Sequence record: PZ445489.1 | Source of the DNA: a phage | DNA: 64,000 bases | Strand: one strand, 5' to 3' | Notes under the pieces: generated by a model | The model's input: the letters and a program-made list of their open reading frames with translations, nothing else | Databases searched by the model: none | Told to the model about the DNA's origin: nothing | Translations under genes and position numbers: made by a program | Part shown: in pieces, positions 29,258-63,544 of the stretch | How the letters are laid out: every line of letters starts with the position of its first letter | Position numbering within the stretch: position 1 is the stretch's first letter

Positions 29258-29295
29258 TGTATATATTATACTAGATTTCGAGAGAATTTAGCAAC
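29258..29295 (-). promoter_or_regulatory. Early sigma70-type promoter (proximal copy of tandem pair)
   Basis: TTGCTA-18 nt-TATAAT with conserved downstream TATAATATATACATAAATT box. Confidence 0.55.
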
Positions 29296-29359
29296 TAAAA
29301 TTTTTATTTTTCTGCTTCGTACTTTCTTATCAATCCGAAACTTTCTCTCTCAAATTTAT

Positions 29360-29395
29360 GTATATATTATACATCATTTATGAGCTATTGCCAAA
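29360..29395 (-). promoter_or_regulatory. Early sigma70-type promoter (distal copy of tandem pair)
   Basis: TTGGCA-17 nt-TATAAT with the same ~25-nt downstream box repeated about 95 bp from the first copy. Confidence 0.5.
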
Positions 29396-30730
29396 TGCAA
29401 TTTTAGCTAATTGAACTGCTTTCTCAGGAGTCATGGTAATAGTTTTCCACCCGTTATTACGATATACTGCCATACGCCCAGAAGCCTGTCTTAGCCCAGT
29501 ACCACCTTTCATAATTAGATCTACAACAATAGGGTCGAGTTTACCCTCGACAATACGTTGAACACGACCTGCAAGCTGTTCAATGAGAGACTCATTATTA
29601 ATGAGACTTCCCATTATTAAACAAGACAACTCATTAAGAGAAATACCTTCAGAGAAGATACTTTGAGCTGCTGCAAGTACACAAGGTCCACCTTTTGCTA
29701 TATCTTCCTGAATTTTTAATCGGTCATCCAAGTGGGTTGCCCCTATAATTTCATATGTTGTAACACCACGCTGTGCAAGAGCTTCTAGTACTGTTTGGAT
29801 TAACTCTGTTCTATCACTTACAATGAGTACTTTATGCCCCATATTCACATATAAATGTGCTAGGTTTATAATAGTTTCTCGATATTCAGGATGATTATAC
29901 ACATCGTTAGCACGTAATGCCCATGGTACGTTTTGGTTTCCTGATAACTCAACAGGTACGGAGTACCTATGGATTGTAGGTGCAACAGTATTATTAACCG
30001 GCGGACTAAATATCTTATATCCAAAGAAATCTTTGAACATAACTTGTAGACCGTCTTTCCGTTTTAATGTGCCGGATAGTCCAATTTTATAGCGAGCACA
30101 GGATATTTCTAGGAAGTTAGTGAAAGTTGTAGCCACACAATGGTGAACTTCATCAACTATAACAGTACCGAATACTTTAGAAAGATTATTCGCATGTTTA
30201 TTCACTGTTTGAATATTACTGACCACAATTGGTGGATCAATGTTATATTTCCCAGAACCTATTATGCCTGGTTCAAACCCAAACCATTTACGAACTTCTG
30301 CTGCCCACATCTCACGAATAGATGTATTTGTACAGATTACCAAAGTTTTCTGGCCAAATTTATACGCAAGTGCAAGGGCTAGGATAGTTTTACCAAATCC
30401 AGGTTTACCATTAATAATACAGGTATCGTCACATTCTTCATATATTGGAAGCTGATCTTCTTCACGCAGCTTGAACTTAGGTTCTGGTATAGCTACTGGA
30501 GCTAATGTGCGTTTATCTACTAATTCGTATTTTACTCCTTTAGCATCTAGTAAGTCCAGACGCGTAATAGGAATCCACTTAATCTCTTTGGCAACAACAC
30601 CACTATTCTTGTACATAATAGGGTATTTACTAGTCATTGTCTCTATGTGATAAGTGGTTTGCTTACTACAATAATCCCAAAGTTCATCATCGGGCTTGAA
30701 ATAGGCTTTATTAGATATAACAACTTTCAT
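29378..30730 (-). CDS. SF2 DEAD/DExH-box helicase (D10-like)
   Basis: 450 aa; Walker A GKPGFGKT, Walker B VIVDEVHH, C-terminal helicase motifs. Confidence 0.8.
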   Translation of the reverse strand: MKVVISNKAYFKPDDELWDYCSKQTTYHIETMTSKYPIMYKNSGVVAKEIKWIPITRLDLLDAKGVKYELVDKRTLAPVAIPEPKFKLREEDQLPIYEECDDTCIINGKPGFGKTILALALAYKFGQKTLVICTNTSIREMWAAEVRKWFGFEPGIIGSGKYNIDPPIVVSNIQTVNKHANNLSKVFGTVIVDEVHHCVATTFTNFLEISCARYKIGLSGTLKRKDGLQVMFKDFFGYKIFSPPVNNTVAPTIHRYSVPVELSGNQNVPWALRANDVYNHPEYRETIINLAHLYVNMGHKVLIVSDRTELIQTVLEALAQRGVTTYEIIGATHLDDRLKIQEDIAKGGPCVLAAAQSIFSEGISLNELSCLIMGSLINNESLIEQLAGRVQRIVEGKLDPIVVDLIMKGGTGLRQASGRMAVYRNNGWKTITMTPEKAVQLAKIAFGNSS

Positions 30731-31224
30731 AATTTTATTCTAAGTCTAGGAATTTCAGGCTCCTCTTGATGGGCTTGATAAATAACAGGGCTATTATTTA
30801 CCAGAATATAGCTTATGTAAGCTGGAACATAGGATAATACAAATGGATATGGAACTTTAGCCACATAGCATTGGTATTTTCCATTATAAATTCTAGCTGA
30901 ATGCAAAACTTTAGAGGTGACAACATCATAGAACGTAGTTTTCTTCCAATTAATAAGATTTCCATCAGAATCTATAAATTGGTTACGCTTTGACCCCACT
31001 AATTGAGACAACATTGATATTCTACCCCTAATAGGATAGAGCTTGTATGGTAATTCTTTCCGTTTCTCAAATAGAATAAGCCTACGTTGAGAAAACGTGC
31101 CAGGCAACTTCCTGTTATCTAGCACATATTTATTATATCTTGTTGTAATTACGGAATAATCACCTTCTTGCTCAATTGATACAAATGCCCGTAACGCATA
31201 GACGGGCAATTTGAAATTAAGCAC
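30727..31224 (-). CDS. Hypothetical protein
   Basis: 165 aa ORF between helicase and polymerase genes; no confident motif. Confidence 0.45.
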   Translation of the reverse strand: MLNFKLPVYALRAFVSIEQEGDYSVITTRYNKYVLDNRKLPGTFSQRRLILFEKRKELPYKLYPIRGRISMLSQLVGSKRNQFIDSDGNLINWKKTTFYDVVTSKVLHSARIYNGKYQCYVAKVPYPFVLSYVPAYISYILVNNSPVIYQAHQEEPEIPRLRIKL

Positions 31225-33784
31225 CGAGAATCCTTTTCACGTTATCCAGATCTTTACATACAGCAATAAACTTATCATCCTTGTACTTGCTATGATCTGG
31301 ATGCTCTTTATCCATTGCAGCTAGTTTCTTATACTCGAACTCTGCATCAAGTAATACACCCTTGACATAACGAGTATATTCATCATCATCAATACAAGCG
31401 ATTGATGGATGCTGTTTCTTCATCTTACCACAGGAGTAGTCACGAGAACCTCCAGCCTCAGAATCAGAATCAATACCAATCGGACAGCCAGGGATACTGA
31501 TACCACGGTCTTTCTGAATATTACGAATCAGGATTTCATTGTATTGGTCGATCAAATCCTCACGAACAATAGCAACTACGGAGTCATGAACCAGCATAAC
31601 AACCTTCATCTCTTGTTCTAGGCCAAGAGAAATGATCTCATTATCTGCATCTACCGCACCTAAAAGGAGGCTATCAGAAGAAGCAGACTGAATGATTGCG
31701 TTAAATCCAGAACGGATTTCTTCACCCTGAACACCACGGTCTTCGGAGTGGATATTATGCAGACGACGTTTACGACCAAAGTGACTATAGATAAATCCAT
31801 GATTCTTGATCTGATCGTGGCACTTATCAATCCAACGCTTAAGCTGCGGGAACTGACCGAAGTAAGTTTCAATGTACTCTTTAGCATCTGCAACAGTACA
31901 CTCTACAAACGGTTCGCCTGTCTTAGCAGCCTGTTCCAGAAGAGCTTCGTTAACAGAATGAGCTACTTTAGCTGGGCCAGAACCATACAGAATACCAAAG
32001 GTGATTGCTTTAGCTGCTTGACGCAGAGCTGGGAATAACTTTTTAACATCACGAGGTTCGCATTGGAGCTTAAATACCATGTGTGCGATGTTAGAGTGGA
32101 AGTCAGGGTATTTATCAGGTTCATTTCTCATGTTGATAAATACCTGTTGCATATTTCTATCACCAGATAGAACAGCAGCATAATAAACTTCCGCAGTTGT
32201 TAAGTCCCATGCGATTACACGGTATCCAGGTGGTGCAACCACACAACCCTTGATAATAGATTCATCACGAGGTAACTGTTGCAGGTTCAGTTTACCAGAA
32301 GAACTCAGACGACCAGAAGTAGTCATGTGTTCGTGGAAGCCAGTACGAATGCAACCATCAGCATCAATGCTCAGAAGAATCTTCTCAACGTAAGTAGAGA
32401 TCAGCTTAGTCAGCTTACGAATCTCTAGTAGAGTCTTAGCAATTGGATGCTGCGTAGACAATTCGTTCAGAGCTTCTGCATCTGTAGAGTCTGCTCCAGT
32501 ATCCGTCAATTTACCTGTTGGGGTTAAGCCAACATAATCAAACAGAAGAACACGTAGCTGCTTAACAGAGTTTGGGTTAAACGCTTCGTTCTGATCTTTC
32601 TCTAGCTGAACGACTTCTGGATAAGTATACAGCTTCTCACGAGCTTTATTCAGATTATGAGTTAACTGGTACTGAGCTTCTTTTAAACGATCAATAGAAA
32701 TAGGTACACCACGATCCTCAACACGCTGGAGAAATACACAACCAGGCATTAGAACATCATAATACAGACTGCAAAGTTTTTCATTCTTCTCAATTTTTGG
32801 TAAGAAGAAGTTGTGCAAACGTATGGTAGCATCTGTATCTTTTGCAGCGTAAGGCCACATAATATCAAACGGAATTAAATCATATGTGAAATCTTCTTTC
32901 TTGATTTTATGTGCTTTGCAGTAATCATCCTTGAACTTATCTAGTTCAAAGTCATAGTCGCCCATATCGGTATACTTCATTGCTAGAGATTTCAAGCCAT
33001 GAGTACCACGACGCTCATCTAGAACATAATGCTGCAACATAGTATCATGGAGCCTGCGTTCTTTATGTGCTTTATCAAAAGTAAGTCCCAGATGGTACTT
33101 ATAAAAGTGCATATCAAACTTCAAGTTGTGAAAAACAATAGTGTGGTTTTCACTATCCAGAATTTTCTGGAGATAATATACTGCAACCTCTGTGAGACAA
33201 TCAGAATCGATATATACACCCTGGTACTCTTGGTGAGATATAGAAACACCAAGCAGATAACCATCTCGACAGTATAGTGCTGAGGTTTCAGAGTCAAATG
33301 CGACAGGTCCGATAACCATATTATACACCATCTTGATATATTCTTCCGCCTCGTCAGGGTCAGTAATAGGACGGTAATCACCAGCTTTTGCAATCTTCTC
33401 ACGACCATTGATAATATCGTGGATATTCTCTACTGTTGCATCGAAAACTGGTTTCATTTCAGGCTTAAAGTGTAACTGGGCTGGGCTGATACTCGCAATC
33501 CAGTTAGCATATCCATTATACTCTACACGTTTACCAGTATAATCACCAATGCCTTTCTTACCTGCGAAATACAGGAAAGGTTCAGCACCTACTAGTATAA
33601 CAAAATCATAATCATTCGGATCAAATGGGTTTTCTGGTGTTCCAATAGTAATGTGCTTTTTAAGCAAACGACCAGATAACTTCTCGTTACACATATGGAA
33701 TACATCAACTTCCTCGCCGTATAGCTGGAAATGTTTATCATACCGAGTGTTATTTAGAGCTTTATCAACTACTGCGATTTTCAA
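31217..33784 (-). CDS. DNA polymerase, family A, with 3'-5' exonuclease domain
   Basis: 855 aa; exo motif FDSETS, Pol A motif B KAITFGILYG and motif C VHDS. Confidence 0.9.
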   Translation of the reverse strand: MKIAVVDKALNNTRYDKHFQLYGEEVDVFHMCNEKLSGRLLKKHITIGTPENPFDPNDYDFVILVGAEPFLYFAGKKGIGDYTGKRVEYNGYANWIASISPAQLHFKPEMKPVFDATVENIHDIINGREKIAKAGDYRPITDPDEAEEYIKMVYNMVIGPVAFDSETSALYCRDGYLLGVSISHQEYQGVYIDSDCLTEVAVYYLQKILDSENHTIVFHNLKFDMHFYKYHLGLTFDKAHKERRLHDTMLQHYVLDERRGTHGLKSLAMKYTDMGDYDFELDKFKDDYCKAHKIKKEDFTYDLIPFDIMWPYAAKDTDATIRLHNFFLPKIEKNEKLCSLYYDVLMPGCVFLQRVEDRGVPISIDRLKEAQYQLTHNLNKAREKLYTYPEVVQLEKDQNEAFNPNSVKQLRVLLFDYVGLTPTGKLTDTGADSTDAEALNELSTQHPIAKTLLEIRKLTKLISTYVEKILLSIDADGCIRTGFHEHMTTSGRLSSSGKLNLQQLPRDESIIKGCVVAPPGYRVIAWDLTTAEVYYAAVLSGDRNMQQVFINMRNEPDKYPDFHSNIAHMVFKLQCEPRDVKKLFPALRQAAKAITFGILYGSGPAKVAHSVNEALLEQAAKTGEPFVECTVADAKEYIETYFGQFPQLKRWIDKCHDQIKNHGFIYSHFGRKRRLHNIHSEDRGVQGEEIRSGFNAIIQSASSDSLLLGAVDADNEIISLGLEQEMKVVMLVHDSVVAIVREDLIDQYNEILIRNIQKDRGISIPGCPIGIDSDSEAGGSRDYSCGKMKKQHPSIACIDDDEYTRYVKGVLLDAEFEYKKLAAMDKEHPDHSKYKDDKFIAVCKDLDNVKRILGA

Positions 33785-33877
33785 ATTTAATCTCCTCTTG
33801 GTAAGTAAGTATAACTTCAGTGTTTCTTCTCTAACTTACCAATATATTATATCAAAATATTGGGATAATAGCAAATA

Positions 33878-34207
33878 CTATTTATAAGTATGAAGTAATT
33901 TACGCATTTCATTACGCTGCTTTTCTAGTACCCGAAATTCTTCATCTATACGCAGAAAAGCACCTAACACTTTCATAGATTGCTCAGTATTTTCTACAAC
34001 AGCCCAATCATAAGTTAGATACACCTCTTGACCTGTATCTTTTACTTTAAAGAAAATATAAGATGCAGGTAATTTAGGATCACCAAATAAATGAAAATCC
34101 TTCCGTTTATTAAGGGACTCTAGTACTGTAAACAGCTCTAGTTTAATCTCTTCGTGTGTTATACTATCGTATACTGGAACATCTTCATAAATATATACAT
34201 ATTCCAT
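33878..34207 (-). CDS. Hypothetical protein
   Basis: 109 aa ORF between primase and polymerase. Confidence 0.45.
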   Translation of the reverse strand: MEYVYIYEDVPVYDSITHEEIKLELFTVLESLNKRKDFHLFGDPKLPASYIFFKVKDTGQEVYLTYDWAVVENTEQSMKVLGAFLRIDEEFRVLEKQRNEMRKLLHTYK

Positions 34208-34233
34208 AGTAGCTCCTCAGTTATTTAGGACTA

Positions 34234-35124
34234 TTATACCAAATCTTTAAGCGATTCAGCAACTAAAATTTCAATACGTTTTGCCAACATATCGATCTCT
34301 TCTTTATTTAAATCACCTGGATCTTTGCCTTCAGGCAGGAGGAAGTTAGCAACTACAGGTGTTAAACGCGTTTTTGTACGAATTAGCTTAGCCAATGCTT
34401 GTGCAGCTTTATTACCAGAAGCATCATTATCTAGTAAGATAACAACAACTTTTACCCCAGCAATAATATAAGGACTGAACTTATCTGCAATGTTATCCGA
34501 AGTAAACTGATGTGTACCAAAGCAGCAAGAAGCATAGTCTATACCATTATCCTCTAGGTTCAGCATATCAAAGATACCTTCAACTAGAATAAGAACTGGA
34601 GTATTATATCGTACAGGGAAAATTGGTGGTGAAACTTGTTTTGGTTTTACTAAGTATTTAGGAGGGGCAGAACTGTTTATAGAACGACCCAAAAATAGGA
34701 TATTGCGTCCAACAGCATCTGTGATTGGGAATACAATTCTGCCTTCCCAGTCTGCTTGGTGTTGGAAAGCAAAATATTTCTTCAAGGTCTTAGAACTTAT
34801 ACCTCGGAAATCACCTTCGAAAAGGTAAGCAGATTCAGGAATTGCAAGATTCGTAGATCCATTCCTAATCTCTGAAATCTTTTTACGTACCTGTGATAGT
34901 CTTGGGGACTGCCGGTACTGAGTCTCATTAAAATAATGGTAAATGCTCGGTATACCTTTACCGAAGCCACAACTCAAGCAGTGCATAATACCTGTTTCAG
35001 GATCAATACGCAAACTTGGGTGTTTATCGTCATGATCTGGATTGAGACAACAGATGAGGATGTCCCCACCTGTGTCTTTATATTCAATGCCTTTCAGATC
35101 AAGTAGTTCTGTTATTCTACTCAT
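34234..35124 (-). CDS. DNA primase (zinc-binding + TOPRIM, DnaG-like)
   Basis: 296 aa; N-terminal CLNPDHDDKHPS...CLSCG zinc finger, TOPRIM acidic motifs EGIFD and LLDNDASG. Confidence 0.8.
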   Translation of the reverse strand: MSRITELLDLKGIEYKDTGGDILICCLNPDHDDKHPSLRIDPETGIMHCLSCGFGKGIPSIYHYFNETQYRQSPRLSQVRKKISEIRNGSTNLAIPESAYLFEGDFRGISSKTLKKYFAFQHQADWEGRIVFPITDAVGRNILFLGRSINSSAPPKYLVKPKQVSPPIFPVRYNTPVLILVEGIFDMLNLEDNGIDYASCCFGTHQFTSDNIADKFSPYIIAGVKVVVILLDNDASGNKAAQALAKLIRTKTRLTPVVANFLLPEGKDPGDLNKEEIDMLAKRIEILVAESLKDLV

Positions 35125-36644
35125 ATATCGCTGGCCTGTTCACCTGTTGAATTTTCAGTTTTATCTTTCTTAGCACGTTTAGGTTGAGCCGACTTATCCT
35201 TCTCAATAGGGATAACGAACTCAGCTTCCATTTGAGATATGTCTTCCATTGCTAGGTTAGTTGTATTATCCATTCGCAGAGTTTCCCAGTTCATCTTAGG
35301 CATAAACTTCACGCTATCAGAAGAACGAGTCTTAACGAAGTCAAACATAATAGCACCTTGACCATTATCAGCTTTTGCAGCATTAAGATTAGCAGCCATG
35401 TCTGCGGAGTCAAGAATCCCCTTTGACATACGTGTTCTACCATCTTGATCGATCTGGTAAGGAGCTACACCAGCCACGTTATGTTTCTGGCAGATAGATT
35501 TGAAAGATGAGCTAACAACCATCTGTTCTTTCCAGTCATACATATCAATGGTTTTAGAGTCTGGAAGTCGGGTTTGGTTAATATAGTCCAGTAAAGCTAC
35601 TGTAACTTTATCACCATATCTAGCAACTAATTTATTTAATTCTACGTCAACTGTTGTAATGGACAGTTCGGGGTCATAAACAATAATCATAGGAGTATGT
35701 AGTTCATATCCCTCTATTAGCTTACTCTCCATATCGTAGAAATCACTCATCTTAGCCATTGTGTACTGTTTAACGAAGCTATCGAAAAGCTCTTCACCAC
35801 CATTAAACATTCTAGCTCTAGTTCTGGCTAATCTCAACAGAGCTGCACCTTCTAGAGTATTATTACGCATTGCTAATGCTGATACACCAGCTAACATGGC
35901 TAGATTACGTCTAAATACTTCATGTTCTTTCATCTCAATTGAGAAGTATGGAGCAATATCCCCATTCAAATATTGCTGAACCTGTATGTTTGAACAGATA
36001 ATGGATTTACCAGTACCACGCCAACCACCAAGCAGTAACGTTTCTGTGCGAGCTAAACCAATTTGAGCGTCGAACTCATTACAAATACCAAGAGCGATTA
36101 AGTTCAGTTTGGTATCTTCTTCTCTCTGGAAAATACGCATGTTATCTGCGTTGAATACTTTTCCAGTATTCGTTACTTTCTCTTCTAATTTTAAGTGAAG
36201 GGAGGCAACTCGGTTGAGAATTTCTCCCTGATCCAGCATTGTTAAATCTTGAAGCACGTCTGTTTCTAGAAGCTTCAGGAATAAATCCTGTGTATATTCG
36301 GCCTCTAGGACTTCAAGTGCCTGTTCCATGCTCACTTCTGGAATTTGAGTGTTAGCTAAGACGACTAGAGCTTGAGAAAGGCGGGCGTTCCTATTAGCTT
36401 CAAGCATAAGTGCGTCAATGGACGGCATTGTGTTATATTTTTTATAATAATTCTGGACGGCTTGGTAAATTGAGGAGAAAGCGTCATTAAAATGATCTTT
36501 ATGCAGTTTTGAGAATGTTTCCAATGCTATTTGCTTCTGTTCGGAAGCTAGAAGCATCTTCAACACTACAGCTTGCACGTTAAACAAGGTCATTCTCCTT
36601 TGCACGCTTTCGTGCCTTCTAAATGCAAAAAGGGGAAGGAGCAT
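35121..36644 (-). CDS. Replicative DNA helicase (DnaB/RecA-fold ATPase)
   Basis: 507 aa; Walker A GGWRGTGKS; overlaps primase start; exact start uncertain (alternative Met 51 nt downstream). Confidence 0.75.
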   Translation of the reverse strand: MLLPLFAFRRHESVQRRMTLFNVQAVVLKMLLASEQKQIALETFSKLHKDHFNDAFSSIYQAVQNYYKKYNTMPSIDALMLEANRNARLSQALVVLANTQIPEVSMEQALEVLEAEYTQDLFLKLLETDVLQDLTMLDQGEILNRVASLHLKLEEKVTNTGKVFNADNMRIFQREEDTKLNLIALGICNEFDAQIGLARTETLLLGGWRGTGKSIICSNIQVQQYLNGDIAPYFSIEMKEHEVFRRNLAMLAGVSALAMRNNTLEGAALLRLARTRARMFNGGEELFDSFVKQYTMAKMSDFYDMESKLIEGYELHTPMIIVYDPELSITTVDVELNKLVARYGDKVTVALLDYINQTRLPDSKTIDMYDWKEQMVVSSSFKSICQKHNVAGVAPYQIDQDGRTRMSKGILDSADMAANLNAAKADNGQGAIMFDFVKTRSSDSVKFMPKMNWETLRMDNTTNLAMEDISQMEAEFVIPIEKDKSAQPKRAKKDKTENSTGEQASDI

Positions 36645-36658
36645 AGCCCCCTCCCCTT
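36626..36658 (-). terminator. Terminator-like hairpin after D5-like gene
   Basis: AAGGGGA-loop-TCCCCTT hairpin followed by TTTT on - strand; overlaps the possible helicase start region. Confidence 0.5.
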
Positions 36659-36675
36659 AGGTTTAATTTACCAGA

Positions 36676-38209: not shown

Positions 38210-38236
38210 ATTTCTTCCTTATCAATTTATATAAAT

Positions 38237-38265
38237 ATTATAGCAAGTATTTAAGCATTTAGCAA
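38237..38265 (-). promoter_or_regulatory. Early promoter located between the two ligase ORFs
   Basis: TTGCTA-17 nt-TATAAT with conserved downstream ATTTATATAAATTGAT box. Confidence 0.6.
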
Positions 38266-38408
38266 CTACAATTTTAACTAACTTTGCTTACCCTCGCCAT
38301 AACTTTCTATCCCTCAACTGAATGATAATAGTATATACCTAAGCGGCGAAAATGTCAATAACCACTTTATAATTCCGATATGGTAGATGGGTAGCAAAGG
38401 GTTATGTA

Positions 38409-39567: not shown

Positions 39568-39596
39568 AATTGATCCTCTCATTAATTTATATAAAT

Positions 39597-39625
39597 ATTA
39601 TATAACAAAACTGAGTTGAAAGCAA
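39597..39625 (-). promoter_or_regulatory. Early sigma70-type promoter
   Basis: TTGCTT-17 nt-TATAAT with conserved downstream box. Confidence 0.6.
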
Positions 39626-40756: not shown

Positions 40757-40813
40757 ATTTTATATTTCCTTAATTAAGAATTAAACAGAATAGTTCTTTC
40801 AAACTATGAGAAT

Positions 40814-40842
40814 ATTATATCAAGAATTGTAGGATTAAGCAA
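40814..40842 (-). promoter_or_regulatory. Early sigma70-type promoter
   Basis: TTGCTT-17 nt-TATAAT. Confidence 0.55.
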
Positions 40843-41805: not shown

Positions 41806-41836
41806 ATTTAAACTCCTCTCTCAAATTTATGAATCT

Positions 41837-41865
41837 ATTATACAGAAAAATTTTCCTGAAAGCAA
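41837..41865 (-). promoter_or_regulatory. Strong early promoter matching the T5 PN25 core
   Basis: - strand reads TTGCTTTCAGGAAAATTTTTCTGTATAATAGATTCATAAATTTGAGAGAGGAG, as I recall the N25 promoter used in expression vectors. Confidence 0.85.
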
Positions 41866-44881: not shown

Positions 44882-45380
44882 AACAATACTCCTGTATTGG
44901 AAATGAAATAAGTTTTCTTTAGGACTATTCAGAAAGAATAGAACAACTGTTACTGTCAATTTCTCAACAAATTAATCGCAAATACTGAAGGGGGGTGGCA
45001 ACTTCCCCTTTCACGCTACACTGCCGCTTCACTATACCGCACAAATCCTTGAGGATGGCCGCTAAGCCAGATTTGCTCACCTAATGCTTCATGTACTAGC
45101 TCATACTAGATGTAGTATACCTTACGTCATCACTTCTCAGAGTTTTTCACTCTTCCCGTCTCACTTCACAACCACCTCACACTAGGTTGCTTCGAGGCCT
45201 TACCAGGGTTCCTACGGGATGTAGATCGCTAAGTATTCTATTAACTATTTGTTTAAAAACTAACACGTAACAGTTAAAACAACCCTTAATGGGGCAGCCT
45301 AACTGTTCCGTATCGCGGATTGTAAACAAGAAAAATTAGCAAAATCAATTTTTACTAATGTCTCTCAATTCAATATAAAT

Positions 45381-45409
45381 ATTATATCAAGATTTTGGGC
45401 ATCATGCAA
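45381..45409 (-). promoter_or_regulatory. Early promoter driving a ~400-nt ORF-free transcript region
   Basis: TTGCAT-17 nt-TATAAT with conserved downstream box; no start codon or RBS follows for ~480 nt. Confidence 0.55.
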
Positions 45410-48673: not shown

Positions 48674-48691
48674 AGCTTTCTCCTCTCAAAT

Positions 48692-48720
48692 TTATAAATC
48701 TATTATATATAAATTTTTGG
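48692..48720 (-). promoter_or_regulatory. Strong early promoter, near-duplicate of the N25-type promoter
   Basis: TTGCTTTCAGCCAAAAATTTATATATAATAGATTTATAAATTTGAGAGGAG on - strand. Confidence 0.75.
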
Positions 48721-48772
48721 CTGAAAGCAAATAAAATAAAAGCCAGGTCGACTAGCAACCCGGCTGATTAGC

Positions 48773-50675: not shown

Positions 50676-50704
50676 TATTATAACTCATTCGAGGGCGGAT
50701 GTCA
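50676..50704 (-). promoter_or_regulatory. Perfect-consensus sigma70 promoter for nrdD
   Basis: - strand TTGACA-17 nt-TATAAT followed by GAAGGAG RBS and ATG. Confidence 0.7.
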
Positions 50705-50755
50705 ACAATATTTTACTATAAAGTTCTGTAACATGATCTGAGTCAAAAAATTTTA

Positions 50756-50784
50756 TTTGCCAATCTCTATTAAAAATTGTATAA
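50756..50784 (+). promoter_or_regulatory. Sigma70-type promoter (distal, divergent from nrdD)
   Basis: TTGCCA-17 nt-TATAAT. Confidence 0.5.
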
Positions 50785-50897
50785 TCACGCACTCGTGCAC
50801 GCGATATAAAATGATTATCTAGTATCACACATCTCACGTTAAAAGCAAGCAAATTTTTTATTTAAATGCAATATCATAGGCTTATTTAAAATTGTAG

Positions 50898-50926
50898 TTG
50901 CTTTTTACTGTATATATTGGTATAAT
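50898..50926 (+). promoter_or_regulatory. Sigma70-type promoter upstream of phoH-like gene
   Basis: TTGCTT-17 nt-TATAAT. Confidence 0.6.
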
Positions 50927-50999
50927 ATATTTGTAAGTTGATAAACAAGATCTTTTTGTTGATCCTCTGTTAGCGAAGTACACTATAGGAGTGTTATTT

Positions 51000-51752: not shown

Positions 51753-51753
51753 T

Positions 51754-54989: not shown

Positions 54990-54995
54990 TTTTAC

Positions 54996-55024
54996 TTGCT
55001 AATCGCTACCAGATTTGCTATAAT
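54996..55024 (+). promoter_or_regulatory. Sigma70-type promoter for nrdB
   Basis: TTGCTA-17 nt-TATAAT. Confidence 0.6.
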
Positions 55025-55055
55025 ATTCCTGAAATAGTGAGAAAGAGGAAAATCA

Positions 55056-57570: not shown

Positions 57571-57576
57571 CTCAAA

Positions 57577-57602
57577 TAGCCCTTTCGGGGGCTATTATAT
57601 TT
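57577..57602 (+). terminator. Rho-independent terminator after thyA
   Basis: ATAGCC-CTTTCGG-GGCTAT hairpin followed by TATATTT. Confidence 0.65.
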
Positions 57603-57611
57603 AAATTTCAT

Positions 57612-57640
57612 TTGCTTATTTAGTGAAATTTAAATATAAT
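57612..57640 (+). promoter_or_regulatory. Early sigma70-type promoter
   Basis: TTGCTT-17 nt-TATAAT with downstream TTTTATAAATTGGAGG. Confidence 0.65.
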
Positions 57641-57665
57641 ATATTTTATAAATTGGAGGTATACA

Positions 57666-57947
57666 ATGATTTCAGCCAAAGAAGCCCAAGAACTTGCAGG
57701 ATTAACAGAAGTACCCGCATTTCTAAAGTTTATAGAAGAAAAGATTGTAGAAGCTGCTAAGTCTGGAAATACAGAAGTAATTATTCGAGATAATCCTTAC
57801 GCTAGGTGGCTATATAATCCTAGAGAAATGCCAGGAGCAGCTAAATCGGTACTAAAAACCTTATCGGATAAGGGGTATCATCTCTCACAATACTACCGAG
57901 AAGCCGCCTTTGTAGACATGGGTCTTAAAATTAGTTGGGAGGTATAA
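57666..57947 (+). CDS. Hypothetical protein
   Basis: 93 aa ORF after promoter with GGAGG RBS. Confidence 0.45.
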   Translation: MISAKEAQELAGLTEVPAFLKFIEEKIVEAAKSGNTEVIIRDNPYARWLYNPREMPGAAKSVLKTLSDKGYHLSQYYREAAFVDMGLKISWEV

Positions 57948-58423
57948 TGTCGGTTTTCCACATTTATACAGATGGTGCTTGTAAGTCTAACCCAGGTCCA
58001 GGTGCCTGGGGTTTTATTGTCTATGATGATAACGACGATCGTTTAGGTTCTAAATCTGGTTATAATCCTAAAACTACAAATAATGAGATGGAACTCACAG
58101 CTATCGTAGAAGCCCTACGTTGGTCTGTTAAAAAAGATAATAGACCAATTGCTATCTATACTGACTCTGCTTATTGCAAAAATGGTATGGAAAGTTGGAT
58201 GTTTTCTTGGCAAAGGAAAGGCTGGAAGAAAGCAGATGGTGAAGTTCCTCTTAATCTAGAACTTTGGCAGGAAGCATTTAAATTAACACAGCAGTATATC
58301 AACTTTCATAATACTAATCCTACCTTTATTAAGGTTAAAGGACATTCTGGTATTAGTGGTAATGAAGCTGTAGATGCATTGTGTAACACAGTTATTACTG
58401 AGCAAGAACTTGCCGAGATGTGA
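57947..58423 (+). CDS. rnh: Ribonuclease H
   Basis: IYTDGACKSNPGPGAWGFIV...MELTAI motifs; ATG overlaps upstream stop (TAATG), GGGAGG RBS. Confidence 0.85.
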   Translation: MSVFHIYTDGACKSNPGPGAWGFIVYDDNDDRLGSKSGYNPKTTNNEMELTAIVEALRWSVKKDNRPIAIYTDSAYCKNGMESWMFSWQRKGWKKADGEVPLNLELWQEAFKLTQQYINFHNTNPTFIKVKGHSGISGNEAVDALCNTVITEQELAEM

Positions 58424-58442
58424 TAAATAAATTAAAAATCTT

Positions 58443-58471
58443 CTTGCTTAAAGCCCTCTAATTTAGTATAA
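58443..58471 (+). promoter_or_regulatory. Early sigma70-type promoter
   Basis: TTGCTT-17 nt-TATAAT. Confidence 0.65.
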
Positions 58472-58499
58472 TATTCGTATTGAAAGTGAGGAGGGCTTT

Positions 58500-58778
58500 A
58501 TGCGAATTTATAACTCAAATTCATTAGGATTTAAACCGTTGAGAAAACGTGCACAATCACCTCGTCAAATAAGAAAGGCTAATATTGGTGAGCCAGAGAC
58601 ACGTCTTCCGCCTCCTCCAGAACAACGTTTAGTTTATCTGGACGAAGAGTTAGCTGAACGCGAAAGAAAAGCTCAAGAAGAGATTGAGCGTAAGAAAATG
58701 TGTACTGCTCCAGCGTATAATAAAGGAGCGTATCAATATGTTTCCGACGCAGAACAAGCTAAGATGGTTGGTAGATAA
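58500..58778 (+). CDS. Hypothetical protein
   Basis: 92 aa; GAGGAGG RBS; proline/charged-rich. Confidence 0.5.
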   Translation: MRIYNSNSLGFKPLRKRAQSPRQIRKANIGEPETRLPPPPEQRLVYLDEELAERERKAQEEIERKKMCTAPAYNKGAYQYVSDAEQAKMVGR

Positions 58779-58794
58779 TTTTTAAAAAATTCAT

Positions 58795-58823
58795 TTGCTA
58801 AACGCTTCAAATTCTTGTATAAT
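58795..58823 (+). promoter_or_regulatory. Early sigma70-type promoter
   Basis: TTGCTA-17 nt-TATAAT with downstream TTCATAAATTGAT box. Confidence 0.65.
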
Positions 58824-58861
58824 ATACTTCATAAATTGATAAACAAAAAGGAAAACAAATA

Positions 58862-59377
58862 ATGGCTAAGCAGAAAAACGCAAAAACTCAAGCAGCTACT
58901 ACAGTTAAAACTTTCCCGCAGACTGAGGCTAACCGCAAAGCTCGTCTGGAACGCCACCTGCGCAAGCACCCTACTGATGCTCAAGCTGCACAGGCACTGA
59001 ATCGTCCGGCTCCGATTCGTCAAAAGCCGAAGGCTAAGAACGCTACTCGTTCTGTAGCCCGCCTTGTGACCTATGTACAAGGTTATGGTCACAAATCTGT
59101 TCCAGTAACACTGAGTTTCAATGCTGGTGCAGAATTGTTCCCTCGTAATGGCATGGCCATGAAAGATTACGAGAAAGCAGTTAACCAGAAACGCAAACCA
59201 ACGGCAGATGTACTGCGTGATGCTCGTGGACAGTTTGGTTCTGTTAAGCCAAATATCTTCGGTGTAGAGTATAGCAAAGATAACGTTCGTGCTCTGTGTT
59301 ACGGTGTAGGCATTAAGTTCACGGGTGATTCTGCTCGTAAATCTGCTAAACCAGCTCGCAAGCGTAAAGCGAAGTAA
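58862..59377 (+). CDS. Hypothetical basic protein (possible nucleic-acid-binding)
   Basis: 171 aa, Lys/Arg-rich, host-optimal codon usage suggesting high expression. Confidence 0.5.
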   Translation: MAKQKNAKTQAATTVKTFPQTEANRKARLERHLRKHPTDAQAAQALNRPAPIRQKPKAKNATRSVARLVTYVQGYGHKSVPVTLSFNAGAELFPRNGMAMKDYEKAVNQKRKPTADVLRDARGQFGSVKPNIFGVEYSKDNVRALCYGVGIKFTGDSARKSAKPARKRKAK

Positions 59378-59441
59378 TAGATAAGTAGGGGCGAAAGCCC
59401 CTACAATCTACTAATTCTCTAACTAATCAAGGATATTTTTT

Positions 59442-59657
59442 ATGTTCTCTAAGAAACCACGTTCTGTTACTGAAATCGTTGCTTCCTTTACCACTATCAC
59501 TGATGAGCTTCAAGCTCGTATTGAGGCTGATCAAAAAATCGCAGCTGATATTCAGAAACAGCAGGAAGAACTCGCTTTAAAGTTGGCTGAAACTAACAAG
59601 AGTGAAAAGTCTGCCCAAACTATTATGGAAAATATCCTTAAACTGCTGGGCAAGTGA
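59442..59657 (+). CDS. Hypothetical small coiled-coil protein
   Basis: 71 aa ORF flanked by GNRA-type hairpins. Confidence 0.45.
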   Translation: MFSKKPRSVTEIVASFTTITDELQARIEADQKIAADIQKQQEELALKLAETNKSEKSAQTIMENILKLLGK

Positions 59658-59665
59658 TTTAAATC

Positions 59666-59688
59666 AGGGGGCGAAAGCCCCTCTTATT
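59666..59688 (+). terminator. Terminator-like GGGGC-GAAA-GCCCC hairpin
   Basis: Hairpin followed by TCTTATTT. Confidence 0.5.
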
Positions 59689-59698
59689 TGGAGAAACT

Positions 59699-59935
59699 AT
59701 GCGTAATTTTGTAGCAAAGAATGATTTTAACCGTGCTAGCACCCATAAGTCCACTAGAGATTATACACGACTTTCTAGTCATGAGGTAATGGATACCTGT
59801 TATGAAGAGCTGGAAGGTAGCTGGAATGAATGGCCTGACTTTTCTATGGAAGAGAACTGGGATGTCAGTGAGGATATGCTTCCTGGTTTTAAAGACCCCA
59901 AGAAGTGGGAGTCTATTAAAGAGACAGCTCTTTAA
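59699..59935 (+). CDS. Hypothetical acidic Trp-rich small protein
   Basis: 78 aa; acidic stretch EELEGSWNEWPDFSMEENWDVSEDM. Confidence 0.45.
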   Translation: MRNFVAKNDFNRASTHKSTRDYTRLSSHEVMDTCYEELEGSWNEWPDFSMEENWDVSEDMLPGFKDPKKWESIKETAL

Positions 59936-59963
59936 TAGTTTTCTACACAATAAAGGATAAGTT

Positions 59964-60665
59964 ATGAAAGTAAAACCATTTGGTATGCTAGATATTGAAT
60001 CTCTAGGAACTCCGGGAGATTGTGGTACTACTCATATTGTAATGCCTTCTTTCGCTTTTGTGGCTATGCATGGGATTGATAAAGACCCTGATCTAGTGTT
60101 TGTTACTTTAGATGTACAAGATCAGCTTAATTCTGGAGCTAAAGTTACGGCATCTACTCTAGCATTCTGGATGGATCAAGCTAAACATAGCCCGTCTGCT
60201 ATCCACATTATGGAAGCTATGAAGGAACGTAATCCAAAACTGATTGCCTTCCAAAATGGTAAACATCATTGCACTAATAAACTCGGCTCTAACTATGCTG
60301 CCTTCTCTATGGCTAAAAACATTATGGAATTGGCTCTAGGCGACAATGCTTTGTACTATGGCAATGGCCCAGAGTTTGATATGACTATCTACTCTGCAAA
60401 TACGTTCCATGCTGGAACCAATGAAGAGGTAGTTCCGTGGAAATTCTGGAATTTGGGCAATGTTCGATCTCTTCGTAATCTCTGGATGCAAGCTGGATAC
60501 AGTTATAAGGCTCTAGAGACCGAAGGTATTAGCTGGGCAATAGCTAAAATGGAGAAGATGGACACTATTCGTTATGGGATCTATCCGGTTAAGCATGATC
60601 CTGCATTTGATGCCTTAGTTGAAAGCTATTGTGTTGCAGCTATGATCGAAAAAATGAAAATTTGA
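59964..60665 (+). CDS. DEDDh-family 3'-5' exonuclease (DexA-like)
   Basis: 233 aa; N-terminal MLDIESLG (D-x-E) and C-terminal HDPAFDA (H-x4-D). Confidence 0.55.
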   Translation: MKVKPFGMLDIESLGTPGDCGTTHIVMPSFAFVAMHGIDKDPDLVFVTLDVQDQLNSGAKVTASTLAFWMDQAKHSPSAIHIMEAMKERNPKLIAFQNGKHHCTNKLGSNYAAFSMAKNIMELALGDNALYYGNGPEFDMTIYSANTFHAGTNEEVVPWKFWNLGNVRSLRNLWMQAGYSYKALETEGISWAIAKMEKMDTIRYGIYPVKHDPAFDALVESYCVAAMIEKMKI

Positions 60666-60666
60666 T

Positions 60667-60695
60667 TTGCTTCCGGCCCCAAAATTCTGTATAAT
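60667..60695 (+). promoter_or_regulatory. Early sigma70-type promoter
   Basis: TTGCTT-17 nt-TATAAT with downstream TTCATAAATTTGAGA box. Confidence 0.65.
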
Positions 60696-60735
60696 ATATT
60701 CATAAATTTGAGAAAACAATAAAAGGAAAACAAAT

Positions 60736-60918
60736 ATGCCAGTATCTAAAAATGTTCGTAAAAATGGTAAGAAAGCTACTCGTAATCTGGGTATCCGTCG
60801 TATGGCTGAACGTCAATCAGGTATCCAGAAAATCTTTGATCTGCTAAATCGTGCTAATCCTAAAATTGATAACAGTAACGATACTGTTCTGCGCACTCTG
60901 CTGGCAATTGGTCTGTAA
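60736..60918 (+). CDS. Hypothetical small basic protein
   Basis: 60 aa ORF directly after promoter. Confidence 0.4.
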   Translation: MPVSKNVRKNGKKATRNLGIRRMAERQSGIQKIFDLLNRANPKIDNSNDTVLRTLLAIGL

Positions 60919-60971
60919 TAGACCAAATTTAAACAAATTCAAATCTCAAACTTCATATAAGGAAGCAAATA

Positions 60972-61610
60972 ATGACTACTCGTATCTCTAAAACTCGCGC
61001 TCTGGCAACTATCAAATCTCTGGAAGCTAAAATCCGTAAAGCTACTGAACAACAGCTTCTGATCGCTGTTGGTGAAGGTAAGGATAAAAATAAGGTTGTA
61101 GTTGGCGCTGCAATCGAAGTAGACGATCTATCTGCTCGTATTAAGGCAGATTTCCAGTCTCTGCTGGATATGATGTCCCAGCGTGATCGTATCAAAGCTG
61201 CTCTGATTAAGAGCAATGCGGAAACAATCGTTGAGATTGGCTCTCGTAAGATGACTGTTGCGGAAGCAATTGAAGCTAAGCGTTCTATGGAACTTAAAGC
61301 TCAACTGCTGGCTAACATGCGTAAGCAGTTCCATGCTGCTACGGTTAAGTTTAACACGCAGAAAGTACAGTTTGATGCTAAATATGAGCGTTTGCAGGAT
61401 AGCATGGCTACCCGCGATAAGAAAACTTCCGAAGATGAAGTTAAAATGCAGCTCAACCTGCTGGAACTCAAGAATACTCCATTCTTGATTGATCCGCTGG
61501 AACTGGAGAAGCTGATTAAGCAGCATGACGAGGAATATCAGGACTTTGCAACAAATGTTGACTTTGTTCTGTCCGAGTCTAACGCCTCTACCTTCATTGA
61601 AGTAGAGTAA
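60972..61610 (+). CDS. Hypothetical protein (coiled-coil rich)
   Basis: 212 aa, host-optimal codon usage, AGGAAG RBS. Confidence 0.5.
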   Translation: MTTRISKTRALATIKSLEAKIRKATEQQLLIAVGEGKDKNKVVVGAAIEVDDLSARIKADFQSLLDMMSQRDRIKAALIKSNAETIVEIGSRKMTVAEAIEAKRSMELKAQLLANMRKQFHAATVKFNTQKVQFDAKYERLQDSMATRDKKTSEDEVKMQLNLLELKNTPFLIDPLELEKLIKQHDEEYQDFATNVDFVLSESNASTFIEVE

Positions 61611-61993
61611 TAATTTAAAAGCTAGTAAATCGGTAGACGAAAGCCCAAGCATCTTACCTCGCAGCAGCGGTTGAAATACGAGGTTAAATAAGACCGCTGA
61701 CCATACTATAAGGTATAATCTATTGGAGATTATGTTTATTACATCAGACATTTAATCTGACACGTAAAAACAAAGCGTCGTTGATATTACCGACACAACT
61801 TCAAAGATCAACATTTAAGTATGAAAGCTGAAAAGTTTAAAGAACTCAAACTTCTAAACTTCTAAAGCTAAAAGATGCAAAGTATTCGTTGATGATTCAA
61901 ACCCTAGATCAAAGGTACATGGCTCATAAGATATGGCCTGTGGCGCCTCTAGGCTGTTTATCGGTTTACTAGTTTCACAATTTAAAAATGTAT

Positions 61994-62022
61994 TTGCTAA
62001 TTTACTAAATTATATGTATAAT
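61994..62022 (+). promoter_or_regulatory. Early sigma70-type promoter
   Basis: TTGCTA-17 nt-TATAAT. Confidence 0.6.
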
Positions 62023-62052
62023 ATATTTTTAAATTGATGAAACGAGGCTATT

Positions 62053-62370
62053 ATGACTTTTCATATTTTGATTGATGATGTGCGTAATCTTCACGGAATG
62101 GACATTATCATTCGAACCCCAGAAGCCGCTGTCGAGTTTCTGAATAAAACTGATACCACAGGCCACTTCGTTTATATGGATAATGACTTGGCTGTAGATG
62201 GTATGGAAGGTTATCAAATTCTTCGTTTACTCTTAGAATTTGGGCAGAGACCAAAGAAAGTGGTACTAGTAACCTCGAACCCAGTAGCTAAGCAACATAT
62301 GCGTAATGATTTGCTTGACTTAGGGTACAAAGAAAACCCCAATCGTGTTGAATATGATTGGCAGGAGTAA
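62053..62370 (+). CDS. Standalone receiver (REC/CheY)-like domain protein
   Basis: 105 aa; ILIDDV, VYMDNDL...GMEGYQIL and VVLVTSNP segments resemble response-regulator receiver motifs. Confidence 0.4.
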   Translation: MTFHILIDDVRNLHGMDIIIRTPEAAVEFLNKTDTTGHFVYMDNDLAVDGMEGYQILRLLLEFGQRPKKVVLVTSNPVAKQHMRNDLLDLGYKENPNRVEYDWQE

Positions 62371-62375
62371 AAAGA

Positions 62376-62825
62376 ATGAAGGCAGCTTTGCTTTTAGTAG
62401 CTGCCCTTACCTTCAGCTTTAGTAGTCAGGCATCGCACGATGCAAAAGAAATAGATTGCATTGCTAAAAATATCTATTTCGAAAGTCGTGGTGAGGGCAT
62501 AAAGGGAATGACGGCGATTGCACACGTTACTAAAAACCGTGTAAACTCCGGTAAATTCCCAGATTCCTACTGTAAAGTAGTATATCAGTCTAACCAGTTC
62601 TCTTGGGTATCTAAGAGACCAAAAGTTGATAAAACTGATGAGGCTTGGCAAACCGCTAAGAATTTAGCTAGAGTGATATACTACGTTGATTTACCACAAG
62701 ATCCTACACATGGAGCACTATACTTCCATAGTGGTAAAGATAAACCTTACTGGACAAAGAAGTTTAAGAAAACAACTAAGATTAAGGGACATACGTTTTA
62801 TAAACCTGTTGTCACTAAAACTTAA
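62376..62825 (+). CDS. Secreted cell-wall hydrolase-like protein (SleB-type) with signal peptide
   Basis: N-terminal MKAALLLVAALTFSFSSQA signal peptide; IAKNIYFESRGEG...AIAHVTKNR...QFSW core; AGGAG RBS. Confidence 0.55.
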   Translation: MKAALLLVAALTFSFSSQASHDAKEIDCIAKNIYFESRGEGIKGMTAIAHVTKNRVNSGKFPDSYCKVVYQSNQFSWVSKRPKVDKTDEAWQTAKNLARVIYYVDLPQDPTHGALYFHSGKDKPYWTKKFKKTTKIKGHTFYKPVVTKT

Positions 62826-62833
62826 AAATTTAC

Positions 62834-62862
62834 TTGCTTAAATACTTAAATTTCCGTATAAT
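62834..62862 (+). promoter_or_regulatory. Early sigma70-type promoter
   Basis: TTGCTT-17 nt-TATAAT. Confidence 0.6.
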
Positions 62863-62893
62863 ACTTCCATAAATTAATGAGAGGAAGCGAAAT

Positions 62894-63063
62894 ATGAAAT
62901 CAGTTGTAATTATTGGTGTTAACACTCGCGGTATTCGTACTACGAAAATTGTTAAAACTTCTAACGTTGCTGAGATCACTACGAACCCTAAAAAGTTTGA
63001 TTTCGCCAAAGTCTCAGCAGTTATGACAGAACAATCTTTTAACCAAGCGTTAGGAATGAAATA
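62894..63063 (+). CDS. Hypothetical small protein (56 aa, below ORF-track cutoff)
   Basis: ATG with GAGGAAG RBS after promoter; stop overlaps next ATG. Confidence 0.3.
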
Positions 63064-63507
63064 ATGGAAGAGAATATTTTAGATGTTTTGCGTAGAGCTT
63101 TGCAGGATTCTAAGTTTAATGGTTCTGATAAAGAAGTCGCTAAAAGCTATCAGACCATAATCGGGGATCTTCAGCGTATTAATAAAGATTTCATCACTTC
63201 TGAACAATTTGTGTCTTATCTCAAAGCTCAACTAAAAAGCATTAACCAGATGAAAGCTAAACTTCATGGTCAAGATCTTGATAGTTATAGCTTGCAGTCC
63301 GCTCAGTATGAGTACATTCTAAATAAGTGGTTGCAGGAGTATCTGCCCCCTCAGTTATCTGATACTGAGATTCGTAAATACTTTGCAGAATTAGTTAAGC
63401 TAAACCCTGGAATTACAAAAGGTATGCTGATGAAAGCGATTAAGGAAGAATTTCCTGGGCGTTATGATGGTGGTACTGCTGCTCAGATTGCTGGTGAATT
63501 TAATTAA
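63064..63507 (+). CDS. GatB/YqeY-domain-like protein
   Basis: 147 aa; C-terminal GMLMKAIKEEFPGRYDGGTAAQIAGEF resembles YqeY-type segment. Confidence 0.45.
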   Translation: MEENILDVLRRALQDSKFNGSDKEVAKSYQTIIGDLQRINKDFITSEQFVSYLKAQLKSINQMKAKLHGQDLDSYSLQSAQYEYILNKWLQEYLPPQLSDTEIRKYFAELVKLNPGITKGMLMKAIKEEFPGRYDGGTAAQIAGEFN

Positions 63508-63515
63508 AAATTTAT

Positions 63516-63544
63516 TTGCTAAATGCTTATAAATTCTGTATAAT
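63516..63544 (+). promoter_or_regulatory. Early sigma70-type promoter driving an ORF-free region
   Basis: TTGCTA-17 nt-TATAAT with downstream TTCATAAATTAGAGAAC box; no ORF of at least 60 aa follows on + strand to window end. Confidence 0.6.

Follow-up and report, generated by a model that had tools for sequence, protein, structure and literature searches.

The sequence analysed here is a stretch of 64,000 nucleotides (nt) of phage DNA (sequence record PZ445489.1), referred to below as the window. By local blastn, the window belongs to a T5-like phage (Demerecviridae) and is 88-98% identical to T5 (NC_005859), with which it is collinear in reverse orientation; window positions 1-7214 correspond to T5 107934-100001, and positions 23202-64000 to T5 81679-41286. 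More than 500 T5-like genomes (Demerecviridae) were matched, with top identities of 95-97%, when the segments 41000-49000 and 29000-53999 were compared with a phage collection by megablast. The region 29258-63544 carries genes of replication and nucleotide metabolism; these run from D11/D10 and pol, past nrdD, nrdAB, and thy, up to where the RNA X / tRNA cluster begins. Given the collinearity, this is the early region of T5. It contains a family of promoters in which the -35 and -10 hexamers are embedded in conserved sequence, including a box downstream of the -10. The original prediction had described this family and assigned it to the T5 type, and both the observation and the assignment hold, given the shuffle statistics and the orthology to annotated T5 promoters described below. 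The family is real, was correctly interpreted, and is already known.

The pattern TTGCT-N18-TATAAT, in which TTGCTn and TATAAT are separated by a 17-nt spacer, has 15 exact matches, all within 33846-63544, compared with 0.17 expected; none of 100 dinucleotide shuffles gave more than one match. With one mismatch allowed, there were 21 matches compared with 3.8 expected. Two further copies have an 18-nt spacer (29265-29294 and 34233-34262), and three have a variant -35 hexamer (TTGGCA at 29366-29394, TTGCAT at 45381-45409, and TTGCCA at 50757-50785). The uniform TTGCTx-17 nt-TATAAT core that had been predicted thus describes 15 sites exactly and the remaining five in part, and the family comprises 20 members between positions 29265 and 63544, in agreement with the predicted "at least 18". 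The expected tandem pair at 29258-29395 is present as well, its two cores, 29265-29294 and 29366-29394, being 101 nt apart. The family divides into ten minus-strand members (29265-48730) and ten plus-strand members (50757-63544), all pointing away from a divergent intergenic region near 50.7 kb, which also holds the minus-strand nrdD promoter with perfect-consensus TTGACA, 17 nt, and TATAAT. As the left-arm promoters are on the minus strand, they read as the reverse complement in the window. The mean pairwise identity of the 20 sites over 63 aligned nt is 59% (range 37-79%), compared with 26% for random pairs. Hence, the sites are a motif family rather than a set of near-identical repeats, and the term "near-identical" was an overstatement. 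The dinucleotide TG directly abuts TATAAT at many family sites. The extended -10 motif (TGn at -15/-14) is not a trait of the family, as the TG was flagged at three sites only (38237, 33846, and 54996).

Most sites carry a 20-nt box after the -10 hexamer, ATATTcATAAATTtGAGAG. In the alignment of the 20 sites on their hexamers, the consensus directly 3' of the -10 is ATaTttaTAAAtT.gagA and amounts to 14.3 bits over 25 nt, while the hexamers themselves hold less (8.7 bits for the -35 and 9.4 bits for the -10). An A/T-rich block resembling an upstream (UP) element, TtAAAATTtTAt, is located directly 5' of the -35; it is equally conserved (14.4 bits over 30 nt) and had been absent from the original prediction. 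Leave-one-out scores of this upstream block are positive at 19 of the 20 sites and average -12.5 at other TATAAT hexamers. For the downstream 20 nt, a leave-one-out position weight matrix (PWM) yields more than 5 bits at 17 of the 20 sites; the other 81 TATAAT hexamers of the window have a mean score of -16.8 bits and a maximum of 8.4 bits, reached by the late promoter P-G25. The predicted downstream box is therefore present at most sites, though not at 50757-50785, and it is poor at 58444-58472. Moreover, the strict consensus as originally written is found with at most three mismatches at five sites only, the others fitting a looser motif. The heptamer ATAAATT occurs 37 times in the window, and 11 of these occurrences are exactly 6-7 nt after TATAAT. 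The column consensus after TATAAT is ATaTt, the early-class discriminator (AGATT in N25), and A[TG][AT]T[TA] follows 15 of the 101 TATAAT hexamers, mostly family sites by inspection of the alignment. In N25, the non-template positions -12 to +2 are TATAATAGATTCAT (Klimuk et al., PMC7472727), and therefore +1 is the A lying 7 nt after the hexamer. From there, the conserved and purine-rich initial transcribed sequence reads A(+1)TAAATTtGAGAG. The box is composed of a 6-nt discriminator (ATATTc; AGATTC in two N25-like copies) and the ∼13 first transcribed nucleotides, ATAAATT(T)GAGAG.

The T5 RefSeq record NC_005859 contains 48 annotated promoters, and we aligned each of these 75-nt features back to the window. 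Of the 20 family sites, 19 have a counterpart among these features, at 87-100% identity, with 50757-50785 counted among these by position only. The named T5 counterparts are P-N25, P-N26, P-K28a, P31A/P31B, P-H207, P-D/E33, and P16-17. The twentieth site, 33846-33874, has a promoter annotation in the BF23 record, with the remark "absent in T5 phage". The copy at 41837-41865, predicted to match the N25 core, was compared with published PN25 sequences, namely, primer IM103 (PMC4447248) and a transcription template (bioRxiv 10.1101/2022.08.30.505822). The window minus strand is identical to published PN25 from TTTATTTGCTTTCAGG... through ...GAGAGAGGAGTTTAAAT, that is, from the -35 through the leader; the shared stretch starts with TTTATTTGCTTTC... 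and ends with ...GAGAGAGGAGTTTAAAT. The published N25 thus does not differ from 41837-41865. Compared with T5, the N25 copy has two substitutions only, both in the UP region (T5 TCATAAAAAAT, window TCGTAAAAATT). The N25 architecture reported in PMC12464699 (TTGctt, 17 bp, TATAAT, an UP element, and a 6-bp discriminator with G at -5) fits window positions 41817-41880. The predicted near-duplicate of N25 also exists and is 78% identical over 63 nt, although its core, 48702-48730, is displaced by 10 nt from the predicted 48692-48720. At the level of sequence, the sites share all features that define the T5 early promoters, and they are orthologues of the annotated promoters of that class. Their early class is suggested by the genes that they would drive (replication and nucleotide metabolism) and by the primer-extension kinetics of Ppol and P15A in T5 (PMC7472727). 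Both the strength and the early timing of the promoters in this phage are likely in view of the orthology and the literature. Studies of T5 N25 and other promoters likewise suggest that Escherichia coli RNA polymerase with sigma-70 (E-sigma70) would initiate at the predicted +1, and with high strength.

Downstream homology and promoter strength were reportedly described by Gentz and Bujard in 1985 and by Kammerer et al. and Deuschle et al. in 1986. All identified T5 early promoters share an ATATT discriminator consensus, while late promoters differ there (PMC7472727). Hsu and Han, summarising two decades of work, report that the native N25 initial transcribed sequence leads to fast escape from an extremely stable open complex, and that an "anti" N25 initial transcribed sequence yields about one-tenth of the productive RNA. 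A PWM constructed from the window sites only was applied to the left arm of T5, which is outside the window and non-orthologous to it. It scored more than 6 bits at 13 of 17 early promoters, at none of three pre-early promoters, and at one of three late promoters. The late promoters P-J5 and P-G25 have TTGACA or TTGATA as the -35 and no ATAAATT box. The same promoter architecture recurs in the Klebsiella phage KpGranit (Sugarlandvirus, ∼72% nucleotide identity in genes). When the KpGranit D2, D3, ligB, and pol promoters are compared with those of the window, 16-19 of 20 positions are identical in the box, versus 6-11 of 17 in the spacer. In addition, KpGranit has an exact N25-type box, TATAATAGATTCATAAATTTGAGAGAGGA, at 46520-46590, where it precedes a different gene in the rnh region and not D2.

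The sites are very probably early promoters of a T5-like phage (Tequintavirus group) that depend on sigma-70, with the box representing the discriminator and the initial transcribed sequence. The RNA polymerase holoenzyme of the host would read each site as a composite signal. The UP-like block next to the -35 would be contacted by the alpha C-terminal domains, and would be followed by the -35 TTGCTn, a spacer of 17 nt (rarely 18), the perfect -10 TATAAT, and the 6-nt discriminator ATATTc or AGATTC. Transcription would then start at the A located 7 nt after the hexamer, and the transcript would begin with A(+1)TAAATT(T)GAGAG. Judging by N25, such a purine-rich transcript start would let a very tightly bound polymerase escape fast. 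In short leaders, the GAGAG/GAGG run may serve as the Shine-Dalgarno sequence or run into it. In total, ∼20 promoters, one per 1-4 kb and divergent around 50.7 kb, would drive the replication and nucleotide-metabolism genes. The motif statistics, the T5 orthology, the PN25 identity, the anchoring of the box to the -10, its class specificity, and its cross-genus conservation were computed here; the binding of RNA polymerase, the +1 position, the strength and early timing of the promoters, and the part played by the box in escape are projected from the literature.

When the window is compared with T5 or Seafire, homology repeatedly breaks off within or beside family promoters. The break at 33856/34232 surrounds an open reading frame (ORF) of 109 amino acids (33878-34207, minus strand; phrog_35630, function unassigned), which is flanked by two promoter copies. 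This cassette is present in ∼51 of more than 500 T5-like records, including BF23, and is found in neither T5 nor Seafire. The latter two have a single promoter instead (T5 70987-71061), whose upstream half corresponds to the window copy at 34233 and the downstream half to the copy at 33846, with the crossover exactly in the shared TATAATA, that is, in the -10 hexamer. Another break concerns nrdB. In the window, an HNH endonuclease gene (54507-54989, 160 amino acids) is directly upstream of the nrdB promoter, with its stop codon within the UP block. In T5, the HNH gene hegH, whose product is 36% identical to that of the window gene, is directly downstream of the nrdB promoter and begins right after TATAATAT, and Seafire similarly has an HNH homing endonuclease gene at the downstream junction. 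In this region (54507-55031), the promoter core alone is shared between the window and T5/Seafire. The slot after the promoter 57612-57640 (57641-57947) is filled in different ways among 15 T5-like genomes: by a 93-amino-acid ORF, by an ORF starting with MGLF, by a gene for an HslV-like peptidase, or, as in T5, by rnh directly; homology stops at +1/+2 or at the Shine-Dalgarno sequence. By hand count in T5 and Seafire, about eight of 12 insertions or deletions of whole ORFs are in promoter-bearing intergenic regions, which make up about one-third of gene junctions. Among these ∼12 events, junctions map to the core of a promoter (33856/34232, 55026-55031, and 57648) or to the leader (39576 and 48685). 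Slots next to promoters look like hot spots at which small genes and homing endonucleases are gained and lost.

That the matches arose by chance in A/T-rich DNA has a practically nil probability. The window is 61% A+T, and loose sigma-70 matches are as common in shuffled sequence, but the exact pattern is far more frequent than in any of the shuffles, the flanking blocks are conserved, and the sites are orthologous to annotated T5 promoters; together, these exclude a chance origin. Some observations do weigh against the promoter interpretation or the role of the box in it. A generic sigma-70 scan did not exceed the shuffles (71 matches compared with 60.6 expected, and 32 compared with 41.8). 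As A/T-rich DNA defeats such a scan, we have not used it as evidence, and only the family-specific pattern is informative. The site 50757-50785 scores -45 bits for the box, and besides it and the poor box at 58444-58472, one more of the 20 boxes is weak. Furthermore, at 12 of the 20 sites, a purine run is located 19-34 nt from the start codon, which makes a translational role inseparable from a transcriptional one at these sites. The box could be mainly a translation signal, an unstructured A/U-rich leader with a Shine-Dalgarno sequence, and not a part of the promoter. The leaders of 19-34 nt at the same 12 sites, with GAGAG/GAGG overlapping the Shine-Dalgarno position, are in line with this, as is the GGA/GAGG peak that emerges when the sites are aligned on the ATG. 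Still, we consider this explanation improbable, and translation as the sole role of the box unlikely. The box holds 15.2 bits in the alignment on the -10, compared with 10.8 bits in that on the ATG. Its A/T part, ATATTcATAAATT, keeps a fixed distance from the -10, while the -10 and the ATG are 25-40 nt apart, depending on the site. The box is also kept at P16-17, with no ORF within 700 nt, and at P31A, P31B, N26, and the 45381 site, which have 51-493-nt leaders; at the site 60695, the true Shine-Dalgarno sequence is 20 nt further downstream than the box. Finally, the published effect of the box sequence on escape from N25 is transcriptional. The anchoring to the -10, the retention without a ribosome-binding role, the class specificity, and the conservation in KpGranit all indicate that the box is a constrained, promoter-anchored element of the early class. 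In short leaders, the purine run merges with the Shine-Dalgarno sequence, and therefore a dual role of the box is likely there.

The two other explanations that we considered would add a function to the promoters. The box may also be a cis-target of the early-to-late switch, so that a phage factor, for instance RNA-polymerase-bound gpT5.026 or a DNA-binding protein like D5, would selectively weaken the promoters that carry it. The mechanism of this switch "remains unknown" (PMC7472727). Such a role, in addition to the promoter role and already proposed for the discriminator, is plausible, and we regard it as a real possibility, if not a favoured one. gpT5.026 lowers the affinity of RNA polymerase for the -5/+2 segment of N25 approximately 8-10-fold, and the early ATATT contrasts with a different late sequence (PMC7472727); the box marks the early class specifically, and the variant found at a given promoter is preserved across genera. 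On the other hand, the effects of gpT5.026 on transcription in vitro are small, at most two-fold (PMC7472727), the box has no evident operator-like dyad symmetry, and escape alone could account for the conservation. A palindromic operator as such was unconvincing, only the central AAATTT being self-complementary. It is less probable, and indeed rather doubtful, that the similarity of the sites is maintained or exploited because they are recombination linkers that shuffle small gene cassettes, like the promoter-early stem-loops (PeSL) of T4-like phages. Consistent with such linkers are the 376-bp cassette with the 109-amino-acid ORF between two promoter copies and the single T5/Seafire hybrid with its crossover in TATAATA, the HNH genes on opposite sides of the nrdB promoter in the window and in T5, the four continuations after the promoter 57612-57640 in 15 genomes, and the location of about eight of the 12 whole-ORF insertions and deletions in promoter-bearing regions. 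However, the sample is small, and insertions and deletions are expected at gene boundaries, about one-third of which carry promoters. Selection for the expression of newly acquired genes predicts the same pattern, and conserved promoters may simply mark the positions where homology resumes after a divergent segment. Moreover, recombination accounts for a possible use of the repeats, not for their existence. The narrower suggestion that the -10/discriminator/leader module may double as a recombination junction, with small ORFs and HNH genes swapped via ∼8-20 shared nucleotides, is slightly more credible, although we make it only tentatively. If it is true, the promoter family would be an engine of early-region mosaicism in Demerecviridae, as the PeSLs are in T4-like phages.

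The closest known system is that of the T5 early promoters, studied in the laboratories of Bujard, Ksenzenko, Hsu, and Severinov and annotated in NC_005859. They occupy the same positions in the collinear genome, are 87-100% identical to the window sites, and have the N25 core and leader identical. The shared architecture consists of the UP block, TTGCTn, 17 nt, TATAAT, ATATT/AGATT, and the transcript start ATAAATTtGAGAG. The differences from T5 are at the strain level only: the two N25 UP-region substitutions, the extra promoter copy and 109-amino-acid ORF between pri and pol, as in BF23, and several different small ORFs or homing endonuclease genes adjoining promoters. Near-consensus hexamers, a 17-bp spacer, an UP element, and a 6-bp discriminator are also found in lambda PR, T7 A1, and lambda PL, with G at -5 as in the N25 copy. 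Strong phage sigma-70 promoters have stable open complexes and escape-limited initiation (PMC12464699). By contrast with lambda PR/PL and T7 A1, the T5 family uses TTGCTn instead of TTGACA, and its transcript start is conserved over ∼20 copies per genome arm, which is not the case for the single lambda and T7 promoters. In the PeSL cassettes of T4-like phages (PMC2839356, PMC4122927), repeated early-promoter motifs flank small variable ORFs, as they do in the window. The two systems also seem alike in that junctions of insertion, deletion, or replacement fall inside the motif; in the window, hairpins abut promoters at 48741-48765 and 39642-39670. The sequences are unrelated, however, the phage family is another one, and only a few events point to a recombination role here.

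Since the 1980s, the T5 early promoters, and N25 in particular, have served as textbook tools for driving strong expression and studying promoter escape. The value of the present result is thus confirmatory, in that a reader of the sequence alone recognised T5 early promoters correctly. The conservation of the discriminator and the initial transcribed sequence holds in this genome, in the other arm of T5, and in a genus infecting Klebsiella. The box is promoter-anchored and early-class-specific, and its sequence at individual sites is conserved across genera, which makes it a concrete candidate cis-element for the early-to-late switch. A modest lead is that the promoter-proximal slots appear to be sites of turnover of accessory genes and homing endonucleases.

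Individual sites on the minus strand begin with the tandem pair. Its downstream member, the P31B homologue at 29245..29294 (TTGCTA, 18 nt, TATAAT, box ATATACATAAATTCGAGGAG), is 100% identical over 75 nt to the T5 "promoter P31B"; the upstream member, the P31A homologue at 29346..29394 (TTGGCA, 17 nt, TATAAT, box ATATACATAAATTTGAGAGA), is 98.7% identical to "promoter P31A". The promoter adjoining the DNA polymerase gene, which is the one annotated in BF23, is at 33826..33874 (TTGCTA, 17 nt, TATAAT, ATATTGGTAAGTTAGAGAAG), and that of the 109-amino-acid accessory ORF at 34213..34262 (TTGCTG, 18 nt, TATAAT, weak box), where the first 50 nt of T5 70987-71061 align. Upstream of ligB, the P-K28a homologue at 38217..38265 (100% over 75 nt to "promoter P-K 28a") is in tandem with a promoter outside the family, the P-K28b homologue at 38330..38358 (TTGACA, 17 nt, TATACT; 100% to "promoter P-K 28b"). 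The homologue of the ligA promoter of T5 (65284-65358) is at 39577..39625, with 100% identity over 70 nt, and here a 69-amino-acid ORF comes first. The P-N26 homologue upstream of D3, at 40794..40842, has a 51-nt leader and is 100% identical over 66 nt to "promoter P-N 26". Upstream of D2, the P-N25 homologue at 41817..41865 (TTGCTT, 17 nt, TATAAT, AGATTC, A(+1)TAAATTTGAGAGAGGAG) matches "promoter P-N 25" at 73 of 75 positions. The site at 45361..45409 is the homologue of T5 58999-59073 (98.7% over 75 nt) and has a 493-nt leader before the gene of the replication-origin-binding protein. The N25-like copy at 48682..48730 is the homologue of T5 55708-55782 (95.5% identity). Terminator-like hairpins on the minus strand at 48741-48765 and 39642-39670 have T-tracts that double as the A/T block of the promoters 48702-48730 and 39597-39625, and compact terminator-promoter junctions of this kind are likewise annotated in T5. 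The nrdD promoter at 50677..50705, also outside the family, matches the consensus at 12 of 12 hexamer positions (TTGACA, 17 nt, TATAAT), is the homologue of T5 53884-53958, and stands back-to-back with plus-strand promoters.

The rightward arm starts with the promoter at 50757..50785 (TTGCCA, 17 nt, TATAAT, no box). Its assignment to T5 53776-53850 is by position only, and the best window alignment of that T5 feature is elsewhere, over 16 nt at 63506-63521. The next sites on the plus strand are the homologue of T5 53638-53712 upstream of phoH (50898..50946, 100% over 75 nt) and the promoter directly upstream of nrdB (54996..55044), which shares with T5 50061-50135 the core only, at 97.4% over 39 nt. 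They are followed by the homologue of T5 46937-47011 upstream of the rnh slot (57612..57660), after which the 93-amino-acid ORF comes here, and by the homologue of T5 46337-46411 (58444..58492, 100% over 75 nt), the one with the poor box. The P-H207 homologue at 58795..58843 is 98.7% identical over 75 nt to "promoter P-H 207". The top box score of the window belongs to the homologue of T5 44393-44467 at 60667..60715, with ATATTCATAAATTTGAGAAA. The homologues of T5 43067-43141 (61994..62042) and of P-D/E33 (62834..62882) are each 94.7% identical over 75 nt to their T5 counterparts.

The last member, the P16-17 homologue at 63516..63564 on the plus strand (98.3% over 58 nt), is in the non-coding region with RNA X and a tRNA-like sequence and keeps its box, with no ORF within 700 nt. 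In the segment 63551-63760, the start of its transcript, ATAAATTAGAGAA, is repeated perfectly in inverted orientation at 63732-63746. In T5, the arms of the 5'-terminal hairpin of RNA X are only ∼7 nt apart; in the window, 165 nt (63564-63728) are inserted in the loop. When the P16-17 leader and the 165-nt insert were folded, the 13-bp closing stem was kept and the energy was unexceptional (z = -0.30), and we claim no structured RNA. ARAGORN found no tRNA in the window, and Rfam at the gathering threshold was also empty across it. A tRNA-like match below the threshold (RF00005, 22.3 bits compared with the gathering score of 29) is present at 63783-63854 on the plus strand, in the region homologous to "RNA X" of T5.

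Several promoter-like sequences lie outside the early region, all on the plus strand. The late P-J5 homologue at 7251-7279 (TTGACA, 17 nt, TATACT) is identical to T5, is located within a coding region, and has no early-type box. In the late P-G25 homologue at 14420-14478, TTGATA, 17 nt, and TATAAT are followed by the 24-mer ATTAAAGAGGAGAAATTAACTATG, which is found verbatim in 13 papers of the library searched. We take this 24-mer to be the "RBSII" of the pDS/pQE vectors. In the late (packaging/head) region, no T5 promoter feature aligned to the window near 1377-1425 when the 75-nt T5 features were used. This segment carries a promoter-like site with TTTACA, 17 nt, TATACT, and the early-type box ATATTCATACAGTTGAGGAG, and the site coincides with the absence of the T5 endonuclease gene T5.154 (homology break 1413/1431).

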